From a virus (Duplodnaviria; Caudoviricetes): a DNA stretch of 64,000 nucleotides. The translations under genes and the position numbers were made by a program. Numbering within the stretch: the stretch's first letter is position 1; each line of letters begins with the position of its first letter. Shown here piece by piece: positions 60,907 through 62,700 of this stretch. The notes beneath the pieces are model-generated. The model saw only the letters and a program-made list of their open reading frames with translations, did no database searches and was not told the DNA's origin. Location of the stretch: positions 1-64,000 of IMG/VR virus record IMGVR_UViG_3300003375_000001, one strand, 5' to 3'.

Positions 60907-61983
60907 ATGACTTCTGCAATTCGCGCTCAACGTCACGCTACCGTGGCGACTGACTTCAAATTCCAAGGTTCCAACACTCGTGTCGTTGGTTCGAATGGCG
61001 AAATCAACGCCAACGATAAGAAAGACCTGCTGAAATCGTCCATGCGTCTGATGGAAGCAGCGTCTAACGGTCTGATCGTTACGGAAGACGACCAACGCGC
61101 TCGTGACGAACGCGCCGCTGTGAACAAGGAACTGTTGACTGCTGCTTTTGGCAACGACATGTCTCACCGTGTTCTTGGTGAACGCATCGCCGAAGAAATC
61201 TATATGACTTCAAACCGTAAGGGTTTCAGCCGTCGCTTCCTGAACCGTATCGAACTGAAGCAAGGTGACATCCCTCGTTTCGCAGTTCGTAAGAAGAACG
61301 TTACTGCCTCTTTCATCACAGGCCCATCGCGTCTTGAAACCCAAGTCGTGACTGACAAATGGCTGACCCCTCCTGAATTCCAACTGGCAACACGCGTGTA
61401 CGTGCCCCAGAACGAAATCAACCAAAGCAACAGCGACGTGCTGGAAGAAAAGTACGTCGAAGCACTGGAAGCCATCATGGTGTCGGAAGACCGCCTGTGG
61501 TACCAACTGGCACAAAACACTATCGGTATCGACAACAACAAGTCGGTCATCGCTGGTACCTTGTCGCCTTACTCCCTGATGAGCGTGCGCCAGCAAGTTG
61601 CTAAGTGGGGTCTGAAGGTTCCTTACTGTCTGATGGCTTCTGACCTGTTTATCGACATCGTTGGTGACAGCGACTTCATCCAAGCTATTGAACCTGTCGC
61701 TCGTCACGAACTGGTGATGACTGGTGAACTCGCTGTGCTGTACGGGATGACTCTGATCTCGGAAGCTTATCGTCACCCAGAACACAAGGTTCTGAACCAA
61801 GGTGAATTCGCTTGCGTGTCGGATCCTCTGCAACACGGTGCTTACTCTGATCGTGGTGGTGTTGACAGTGCTCCTATCAACCCAACTACTGAAAAGATCA
61901 TGGGTCGTGGTTGGTTGCTGTCGGAATCGTTGTCGATGACTGTGGCGAATTCCCGTTCAGTTGCACTTGCTGTTAGACAGTGA
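60907..61983 (+). CDS. major capsid protein (HK97-fold, jumbo-phage type)
   Basis: 358 aa, strongest codon bias in window, AAGGA RBS, head-gene context; resembles RSL1/Lu11-like MCPs from memory. Confidence 0.8.
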   Translation: MTSAIRAQRHATVATDFKFQGSNTRVVGSNGEINANDKKDLLKSSMRLMEAASNGLIVTEDDQRARDERAAVNKELLTAAFGNDMSHRVLGERIAEEIYMTSNRKGFSRRFLNRIELKQGDIPRFAVRKKNVTASFITGPSRLETQVVTDKWLTPPEFQLATRVYVPQNEINQSNSDVLEEKYVEALEAIMVSEDRLWYQLAQNTIGIDNNKSVIAGTLSPYSLMSVRQQVAKWGLKVPYCLMASDLFIDIVGDSDFIQAIEPVARHELVMTGELAVLYGMTLISEAYRHPEHKVLNQGEFACVSDPLQHGAYSDRGGVDSAPINPTTEKIMGRGWLLSESLSMTVANSRSVALAVRQ

Positions 61984-62000
61984 GTACATAAACTATACGG

Positions 62001-62187
62001 ACTAGGGCCAAGTGCCCTAGTGTAAGACGATACCTTGCGAATGTTTGAAGGTGGCTGAAACTAGCTTAGCCGCTGGTGCGAAAGAAATGGTGCAGACTAC
62101 GTGGTTGTGGTATCTGCTCCTGACGGGGTTCATACGATAGTGAATCCAACTCGCAAAGTTCTAATGAACGTCTTACACTAGGGCACT
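62001..62187 (+). ncRNA. candidate structured RNA element closed by a 19-bp duplex
   Basis: 62011-62029 is the exact reverse complement of 62169-62187; internal hairpins; competing hairpin 62001-62021. Confidence 0.45.
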
Positions 62188-62226
62188 AGCTCTAATTTAT
62201 TGAACCAACCCCACAAAGGAATCGAC

Positions 62227-62700
62227 ATGGCAAAGTATAATCGCGCTCTTGACACTCTTGTCATGGCCGCTGCCCTGCATCGTCAAGGCAAATCTAATGA
62301 AGCTGCGAAGCTTTTTGTTCAAGCTGCCTCGGACAAGTCTATGGCAGAAGCATCGAAGCTGGTGAATCTGTATAATCAGAAAGCTCTGGCCTCTAACATA
62401 GCAACCCGCGTCGCAAAGGCTACTACAGCTAAGCCTGCTACAAAGCCAGCTAAGCCTACAAAGGCTGCCGCTTGGCCTTGGTCTGAGACGGCTGACGCTG
62501 CTCCTTCTGACGTGCTTGACGTTCAAAACGAAGACTTCGGTATCGAGCCTGAAGAAAACGAGTTGATGACTCGCGTTGTTCAGGAAGCTGACGCCATCGA
62601 CGGTGATGAAGACGAGCATGAAGACGAAGGTGAAGAACAGGAAGCTGTTGCAGCTGCCCGCTTCACTCGCGCTCTTGCTAATCTGTCCCGTCAAGGTTGA
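62227..62700 (+). CDS. hypothetical virion-associated protein
   Basis: AAAGGA RBS before MAKYN; acidic C-terminus. Confidence 0.75.
   Translation: MAKYNRALDTLVMAAALHRQGKSNEAAKLFVQAASDKSMAEASKLVNLYNQKALASNIATRVAKATTAKPATKPAKPTKAAAWPWSETADAAPSDVLDVQNEDFGIEPEENELMTRVVQEADAIDGDEDEHEDEGEEQEAVAAARFTRALANLSRQG

Follow-up and report, generated by a model that had tools for sequence, protein, structure and literature searches.

The stretch of DNA analysed here (the window) comprised 64,000 nucleotides, positions 1 to 64,000 of IMG/VR record IMGVR_UViG_3300003375_000001. The record is a complete, terminally redundant jumbo phage genome of 238,517 bp, with kinship to Ralstonia phage phiRSL1, Burkholderia phages BcepSaruman and BcepSauron and Achromobacter phage Motura. 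The locus under study was located directly behind the major head protein gene, which was assigned by its match to phrog_2522 ('major head protein', E 5.8e-83) and is similar at the DNA level to the major head genes of phiRSL1, BcepSaruman and Motura. The gene that follows gave no PHROG match. N-termini homologous to its product come after the capsid gene, or after a homing-endonuclease gene (HEG), in contigs L003, L017, L022 and L028. No tRNA or tmRNA was found with ARAGORN. The genes and pairing features of the locus were as follows.

60907 to 61983, + strand: major head (capsid) protein gene, 358 aa, with the element directly behind it.
62001 to 62021, + strand: local post-capsid hairpin with an 8-bp stem and a 5-nt loop (−13.8 kcal/mol); the outer part of the left arm is formed by its 3′ half.
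62003 to 62194, + strand: whole mini-element, 192 nt, closed by a helix of ~25 bp; read from folds and from comparison with relatives as a probable HEG cassette with an internal deletion.
62011 to 62029, + strand: left arm, in the cassette 5′ UTR; the same arm is present in contig L028 (39 to 57), and its 14-nt core is identical in L017.
62169 to 62187, + strand: right arm, spanning the end of the former nuclease gene (five codons and the stop) and followed by a U-rich stretch.
62227 to 62700, + strand: downstream gene, 157 aa, with an acidic C-terminus; conserved, and placed directly after the capsid gene in HEG-free relatives.

The first-pass annotation had described an exact 19-bp inverted repeat around a small ORF, a local hairpin competing for the left arm, and further inner stems. 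All of these were recovered. The two arms were complementary at 19/19 positions with 139 nt between them, the competing hairpin was real at the stem length and energy listed above, and the inner stems were present in the minimum-free-energy fold. Within the window, the 19-mer occurred at these two places only (chance expectation 0.02 matches). No perfect inverted repeat of the 238,517-bp genome was longer, and no other had a long loop; by our own estimate, ~5e-4 repeats of 19 bp would be expected within 600 nt. Inverted repeats of at least 13 bp within 4 kb numbered 15 in the whole genome against ~14 expected, so that the 19-mer alone stood out.

In the predicted fold, the helix continued outward (62003-62008 with 62189-62194) to ~25 bp. 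The resulting 6 + 19 bp helix with a 2x1 internal loop meets, in silico, the ~20 bp of near-continuous double-stranded RNA required of an RNase III substrate. The fold energy was −86.9 kcal/mol (z = −5.0), and the span 62003-62194 folded at −85.3 kcal/mol. Since the reverse strand folded equally well (z = −5.2), fold energy alone cannot pick the strand. A weak terminator-like site with a T-rich tail was located at 62179-62194 by a consensus scan, in which regional site counts were at shuffle level and for which the 139-nt interior is atypical of a terminator. Antisense promoter-like sites were searched for within the element in a weak test and none was found. In an independent Logan assembly of the source run, the stretch was contained in one contig with zero differences at ~45x, so the short form described here is no mis-assembly.

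The corresponding site was inspected in relatives. It was empty in 14 IMG/VR relatives and in contig L022, in which the post-capsid spacer measured 35 to 190 nt (mostly 35 to 80 nt) and had no similarity to the element. In nearly all relatives, a simple strong hairpin of 9 to 14 bp was positioned at most 60 nt after the capsid stop codon. Because the spacers of HEG-free relatives are short, carry only this hairpin and are dissimilar in sequence, the 192-nt element is considered an insertion peculiar to its lineage. The sequencing runs listed included no RNA run; in one of them (X2), only the capsid gene of a more distant relative was found.

The closest capsid relative (P0001, 93% capsid identity; contigs L017 to L021, ENA assemblies) carried a 377-aa gene at exactly the same site. 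The L017 gene matched DUF7487 (E 1.3e-28, 100.8 bits), a TnsA-like N profile (E 2.6e-7, 31.5 bits against a Pfam cut-off of 26.5) and PHROG 'homing endonuclease' families. It was flanked by a 19-bp perfect inverted repeat, the 14-bp core of which is identical to the window arms, and its TAG stop fell within the right arm. HEGs at this capsid/next-gene site were found in L017, L028, L030/31, L032, L033 and L034, and the intact enclosed nucleases were 377 to 392 aa in length. The L028-type cassette comprises a structured 5′ UTR and a nuclease with a zinc finger, YG repeats and a PD-(D/E)XK domain (DUF7487 / TnsA-N-like). Its 390-aa protein is a paralogue of the L017 protein (41% identical). On alignment of the six intact proteins, the PD...E-x-K (E-V-K) residues were invariant.

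The nearest nuclease homologues in a library of 1.8 billion proteins (P0124, P0142, P0163 and P0129) were all encoded in other phiRSL1-like phages, with a capsid gene on one side and the same downstream gene on the other. The DUF7487 family as a whole comprised 6818 cluster representatives at E up to 0.001. A PDB sequence search with the HEG profile gave no meaningful match, and a literature search for 'DUF7487' found nothing. Two intact paralogous HEGs were present elsewhere in the genome, at 87644-88888 (− strand) and 222514-223758 (+ strand), with no flanking repeats of note of 10 bp or more. As these two intact paralogues are without a flanking repeat, end pairing is not required by the nuclease family as such.

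The HEGs at the post-capsid site were 27 to 41% identical to each other, against 67 to 93% for the capsid proteins. Capsid identity to the window was higher in the HEG-free L022 (75%) than in the HEG-bearing L030 (67%) and L032 (68%). Judged from these sequences, a patchy distribution at one site together with divergence faster than that of the neighbours is the pattern of free-standing HEGs, and cleavage and homing are putative activities. Enrichment of HEGs beside capsid genes has been described (PMC10448857).

The window copy was compared with L028, a 1651-nt metagenomic Logan contig in which the same flanks and arms surround the intact 390-aa PD-(D/E)XK nuclease gene. By BLAST, window positions 61988-62074 corresponded to L028 positions 16-102 with 86/87 identical (99%), and the window from 62071 onward corresponded to L028 from 1246 onward at ~92% up to the right arm. 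The features defined by this comparison were as follows.

62050 to 62074, + strand: hairpin remaining from the cassette 5′ UTR, with two 9-nt strands and G.U pairs on the + strand (−11.8 kcal/mol).
62071 to 62074, + strand: deletion joint, a 4-nt microhomology CGCT, found at each of the two break points in the intact L028-type cassette; the two BLAST alignments overlap by exactly these 4 nt.
62071 to 62181, + strand: nuclease gene remnant, made up of the final 36 codons and the TAG stop, still in the original frame, with the stop within the right arm (tblastn against the L028 HEG).
62087 to 62140, + strand: 17-aa ORF of the first-pass annotation, in the +1 frame of the nuclease remnant; most likely no gene.

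Because the two L028 alignments overlap by CGCT with 1143 bp missing between them, the window copy is read as an L028-type cassette minus 1143 bp. By tblastn, the remnant was 92% identical to the L028 HEG over 37 aa (E 9e-20). It also matched the HEG C-termini of L017 (6e-5), L034 (5e-4) and L030 (1e-3), with frame and TAG stop in common. The catalytic PD...E-x-K part lies within the deleted portion and is absent from the window copy. The 3′ strand of the 62050-62074 hairpin ends at the deletion joint, and the sequence is 23/26 conserved in L017; in intact cassettes, the 5′ strand of this hairpin pairs instead with a downstream partner that is gone from the window copy. L028 was itself recombinant, with a left arm like that of the window and a right flank of L017 type; for this reason its arms contain one G.U pair and one A.C mismatch.

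From these comparisons, the folded element at 62003-62194 is very probably a dead, internally deleted free-standing HEG cassette. An ancestor of this phiRSL1-like jumbo phage had an L028-type cassette, in the form now seen in L028, between the capsid gene and the next gene. A deletion of 1143 bp at the CGCT microhomology then took out 81 nt of the 5′ UTR and the first 354 codons, and the two mutually complementary cassette ends were left over. An element behind the capsid gene of this kind is ordinary, because sister phages keep a whole nuclease gene between the same two pairing arms. Late in the homing cycle, a decayed copy is expected to be left after fixation (PMC1654191), and phage T4 has a comparable defunct gene, the truncated I-TevIII (PMC2790892). 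Gutted HEG cassettes as such are thus known; the pairing of the two ends, conserved in the post-capsid HEG lineage and described below, is a modest new observation.

Other identities for the element were weighed against a gutted cassette. The strong fold (z −5), the position behind the capsid gene where relatives keep a hairpin, and the local hairpin competing with the left arm would all suit an autonomous functional phage RNA (a riboregulator, a read-through switch or a packaging-type RNA) into which the nuclease gene was inserted later in the relatives. The interior at 62071-62168, however, is recognisable nuclease coding sequence in the original frame, with the original stop and a microhomology joint at its start; the short form is for this reason derived from the long form and not the reverse. 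The element was, moreover, absent from all relatives except the HEG-bearing ones. We regard an autonomous RNA as highly improbable. The more specific proposal of a structural RNA of the phi29 pRNA type was not supported either: in the Rfam scan that had been called for (E up to 10), the window had no match close to a gathering score, and the inner stems, which derive in part from old coding sequence, are not conserved in L017. Nor did any Rfam family, group I/II introns, 6S RNA, Y RNA and ribozymes among them, match the six full cassettes (E up to 1). The suggested conformational switch held in part, in that the local hairpin and the long-range stem are alternatives in both the window and L028. 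It is not family-wide, however, as the post-capsid hairpin lies apart from the left arm in L030, L032 and L033.

Derivation from a transposon, as a MITE with terminal inverted repeats mobilised by a transposase in trans, is a shade less probable again. Such an origin would accord with terminal inverted repeats of 19 bp (19/19), a length of ~190 nt, an intergenic position, absence from most relatives and a parent gene with a TnsA-like nuclease domain; TnsA alone, though, is not known to transpose. The genome contained a single copy, no transposase was found, and there was no flanking direct repeat that could represent a target-site duplication. All six full-length relatives occupied one site, which indicates homing behaviour and not transposition. 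BLAST searches of phage and plasmid collections gave chance-level matches only. No other copy of the element was found by exact-pattern scans of IMG/VR or of JGI metagenomes, one of the latter returning only L029, which is the same contig as L019. Exact-match scanning of 185,579 species genomes returned a lone bare 19-mer in Hymenobacter norwichensis, at chance level and with no other similarity. A 15-mer match at 95143 of the phage's own genome was located inside a 566-aa gene (E 0.16) and was judged to be chance. The earlier suggestion of a MITE-like insertion nevertheless came closest of the four options offered, in that a mobile element has here given rise to a miniature, non-autonomous form that most relatives lack; it failed on the parent, which is a HEG cassette, and on the lack of a target-site duplication, second copy or transposase.

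Least probable of all is a type-I-toxin-like or lysis-timing peptide, encoded by the 17-aa hydrophobic ORF under control of the 5′-3′ pairing. The ORF and the GGTG placed 8 nt upstream both exist, and hok-type mRNAs use long-range pairing. Both features, however, are contained in the nuclease-frame remnant, in which the would-be Shine-Dalgarno sequence is part of the conserved Arg-Trp-Cys (R-W-C) codons of the nuclease. The 17-aa frame also overlaps the intact L028 gene, where 3/17 residues differ, one of them by a change from Leu to Arg. Three of the four nucleotide differences within the ORF are silent in the nuclease frame, and all three differences at the peptide level change residues; the ORF is best taken as an out-of-frame by-product. 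The only promoter-like site found was on the minus strand at 62264-62237, outside the element, in a scan with counts at chance level, and no other copy of the peptide was present in any collection searched. The comparison with hok-like 5′-3′ pairing around an ORF retains some merit, but the ORF enclosed in intact relatives is a 377- to 392-aa nuclease gene and not a 17-aa peptide. The element is accordingly without standing as a toxin locus, a stand-alone ncRNA or a transposon MITE.

The pairing of the cassette ends was then considered across the lineage. For each of six cassettes, the 5′ region (upstream of the start) was compared with the 3′ region (ORF end plus spacer). Pairing was scored ungapped and was assessed by a shuffle test with 60 shuffles. 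A pairing of 14 to 21 bp between the 5′ UTR and the 3′ end was present in all six diverged cassettes, each with a different sequence. The longest perfect complement was 14 to 19 nt in 5/6 cassettes against a null mean of 7.4 (L017, 19; L028, 14, or 18 with one G.U; L032, 16; L033, 15; L034, 15, within 20/21). When wobble pairs were allowed, the pairing score was 44 to 51 in 6/6 cassettes, L030 (16/18) included, with z of 6.5 to 9.2 and 0/60 shuffles reaching it. Neighbouring genes scored 19 to 27 with one exception. Scores of 17 to 33 were obtained for 15 distant HEGs of the same superfamily at other sites, none of which has such pairing.

Between the window and L017, the arms have a 14-bp core in common; four or five pairs on its inner side and one outer pair are different, and the arms remain complementary in each. 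The nucleotide-level alignment covers three sequences, and the family-level argument is carried by the six cassettes. By these comparisons, complementarity of the ends is a conserved trait of the post-capsid HEG lineage, evidently held by compensatory change, and is not an accident of the window copy.

The arms were not fixed in position. At one extreme (L034) the left arm was placed 7 nt behind the capsid stop, at the other (L033) it overlay the start codon, and in 4/6 cassettes its distance upstream of the start codon was 90 to 130 nt. The right arm ranged from ~80 nt before the stop, within the ORF (L032 and L033), to across the stop (the window, L017, L028, L030 and L034). In every cassette, the ORF was enclosed by the arms. 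Predicted sense-strand duplexes in the six cassettes were 20 to 30 bp in length. The sense-strand duplex was more stable than the antisense in 6/7 cases, by up to 7.6 kcal/mol, the exception being L017, in which the antisense was slightly more stable. Within the helices, G.U pairs and A.C mismatches numbered ~11 to 6, a difference that was not significant as a strand test. In the predicted folds of intact cassettes, the 5′ UTR also forms a helix that borders directly on the start codon.

The pairing most likely acts in sense RNA, where it may loop or cut the nuclease gene out of the abundant capsid mRNA; we place this step, which is modelled on the predicted duplexes, at about an even chance. 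In capsid transcripts that read through, the duplex would form once the 3′ end has been made and would close the nuclease gene into a loop behind a 20- to 30-bp duplex. This duplex would be long enough for RNase III and would limit nuclease expression. With the gene looped out or cleaved, the capsid and downstream cistrons would in functional terms remain neighbours. After loss of the gene, the duplex of the window copy would persist as an unusually large stem-loop behind the capsid gene, at the place of the plain hairpin of relatives, and would act there in processing or in stabilising the 3′ end. Known HEG biology accords with such a role: T4 mobE shares a transcript with the gene upstream of it, and a hairpin terminator damps its expression (PMC2790892). 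By analogy, the 5′ UTR helix at the start codon may echo the structure-based damping of T4 homing genes reported in the same study (PMC2790892).

A role of the arms in DNA was the main competing account of the pairing, and is unlikely though of appreciable weight. The arms could be inverted recognition or binding sites of the nuclease (for autoregulation or immunity), a palindromic homing site split by insertion, or a hairpin or cruciform for a structure-specific PD-(D/E)XK nuclease. PD-(D/E)XK enzymes are often dimers on palindromes, the arm sequences change along with the fast-diverging nucleases, and a distant homologue in Vibrio phage Va1 is annotated as 'HJR family nuclease'. A DNA-level role is equally compatible with the perfect Watson-Crick arms of the window and L017. 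Another nuclease family, Ssn, is encoded beside copies of its own cognate motif, NTS (PMC11893778). A fixed place would, however, be expected of protein sites or of a split target, and the arms slide by up to ~120 nt relative to the start and stop codons, with two right arms inside the ORF. Because arm positions vary while the ORF is always enclosed, a closing helix in RNA suits the data better than protein sites or a split target. The helices, moreover, extend via G.U pairs, the stability comparison given above favours the sense strand, and the window arms are still perfect though the nuclease gene is gone. An uninterrupted palindrome, as would be expected of an empty site, was not found in IMG/VR, which is a weak blank as the clade is rare. 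In L030, L032 and L033, an intact post-capsid hairpin precedes the left arm, which means that the arms are more than the two halves of that hairpin. Insertion of the nuclease gene into the loop of an old post-capsid hairpin was rejected as a general account on the same three contigs and on the two right arms located within the ORF. The probability left after the RNA and DNA roles falls to a purely fortuitous relic.

The cassettes were compared with known systems. Like the free-standing phage HEGs of T4 (mob and seg), they place a selfish nuclease gene between two conserved essential late genes, are patchy among close relatives and diverge faster than their neighbours. As with the T4 HEGs (PMC2790892), the gene points the same way as its upstream neighbour and would be damped by RNA structure. 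Unlike the T4-type HEGs, the nuclease is of the zinc-finger, YG-repeat, PD-(D/E)XK type (DUF7487 / TnsA-N-like) and not HNH, GIY-YIG or LAGLIDADG. The cassette ends also differ from those of T4-type HEGs in pairing over 14 to 21 perfect bp (20 to 30 bp with wobbles) across ~1.3 kb, and no description of such pairing for T4-type HEGs was found in the literature searched.

Long stems serve as RNase III substrates at the T7 R sites, in lambda sib retroregulation of int and in the RNase III-excised intervening sequences of bacterial 23S rRNA. As in these, a long duplex (at least ~20 bp) would be formed from both sides of a transcript segment, and its cleavage, predicted here from general knowledge of such stems, would separate or destabilise the enclosed part. 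The T7 R sites are local hairpins, in contrast to the 1.3-kb-range pairing described here, and the 23S intervening sequences are in rRNA. No sequence or Rfam similarity to the element was found for these systems. As in hok/sok, a message that encodes a potentially harmful protein has its 5′ end paired with its 3′ end, and the ORF is enclosed in the full-length RNA; the left arm of L033 covers the start codon, and the extended helix of L030 comes within 6 nt of it. Unlike hok/sok, the enclosed gene encodes a 377- to 392-aa nuclease and not a small membrane peptide, and the left arm is in most cassettes (4/6) at a distance of 90 to 130 nt upstream of the start codon. With Ssn/NTS (PMC11893778), the cassettes share a small nuclease gene bracketed by inverted repeats, but the Ssn fold is GIY-YIG and its repeats are multi-copy genomic motifs cut as single-stranded DNA (PMC11893778).

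Taken as a whole, the findings can be tentatively assembled into a wider reading, which we hold to be possible but somewhat short of an even chance. A PD-(D/E)XK HEG lineage may have specialised behind the capsid gene of phiRSL1-like jumbo phages, achieving an intron-like insulation without splicing by means of a co-varying 20- to 30-bp duplex (through loop-out or RNase III excision). After decay of the gene, the phage may keep the duplex as a post-capsid processing or stabilising signal, an RNA element donated by a selfish gene.

For annotation, a false lead is removed, in that the locus holds no toxin, ncRNA gene or transposon but only what is very probably the shell of a selfish gene. The homing cycle is seen at one locus in three stages, empty, occupied and gutted, with the deletion joint resolved to 4 nt. 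That six cassettes only 27 to 41% identical each have their own long end pairing indicates selection on the fit of the selfish gene within the most heavily transcribed operon of the phage. Should the pairing operate in RNA, it would offer homing genes a general means of cutting their cost to the host phage, it would also be a source of new structured elements after gene loss, and the DUF7487 family would gain its first functional context.

The contig L028, which carries an intact 390-aa homing-endonuclease gene (HEG), was found to have flanks of two types. On the left side, both the flank and the arm match the window type (86/87), and the right flank of L028 (L028:1357-1398) is near-identical over approximately 40 nt, when compared by eye, to that of L017 (L017:5368-5410), the contig of the closest phage, which has an intact 377-aa HEG. 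Judged from these sequences, L028 is a mosaic, window-type on its left side and L017-like in its right flank. Because the flanks are of two types, a recent exchange of DNA among cassette-bearing phages is suggested, with the crossover within the cassette.

The 5' UTRs of both intact cassettes (L017:4130-4250 and L028:58-200) each fold into a long helix of 10 to 16 bp, in which the two contigs show compensatory differences. The 3' strand of a second predicted helix adjoins the start codon in each, and no clear Shine-Dalgarno sequence was present in either region. As modelled, these folds look like built-in translational damping. The downstream partners of the helices have been lost from the window through the deletion.

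The first 60 nt past the capsid stop codon were surveyed in L002-L013, the HEG-free relative L022, and L030 and L032, two related phages with a post-capsid HEG. In almost every relative a single hairpin, simple and strong, lies directly 3' of the capsid gene, with a stem of 9-14 bp and z-scores from −2 to −7, mostly without a clear U tract. This hairpin is a feature conserved by position and may serve as an attenuator or as a stabiliser of the 3' end. In two of the relatives the spacer behind the capsid gene is unusually long, at approximately 160 to 190 nt, and contains several hairpins (L005:830-991 and L014:4006-4200); a tblastn search of L005 with six HEG proteins as queries returned no nuclease remnant.

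In L032, a perfect 17-bp inverted repeat also brackets a non-nuclease gene two genes 3' of the HEG (pairing score, z 5.2):

L032:4296-4312, left arm, 17 bp, approximately 20 nt 5' of the gene's ATG
L032:4331-5116, 261-aa non-nuclease gene
L032:5116-5132, right arm, 17 bp, beginning at the gene's stop codon

This may be a further cassette or a second gene-enclosing pairing in the late operon.

The window's own phage genome encodes two nuclease paralogues outside the window, both 25 to 31% identical to the L017 protein and neither flanked by inverted repeats:

G000:C1:87644-88888, minus strand, intact 414-aa DUF7487/TnsA-N-like nuclease
G000:C1:222514-223758, plus strand, intact 414-aa DUF7487/TnsA-N-like nuclease

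With these intact copies, the phage would still have live members of the nuclease family at other sites.
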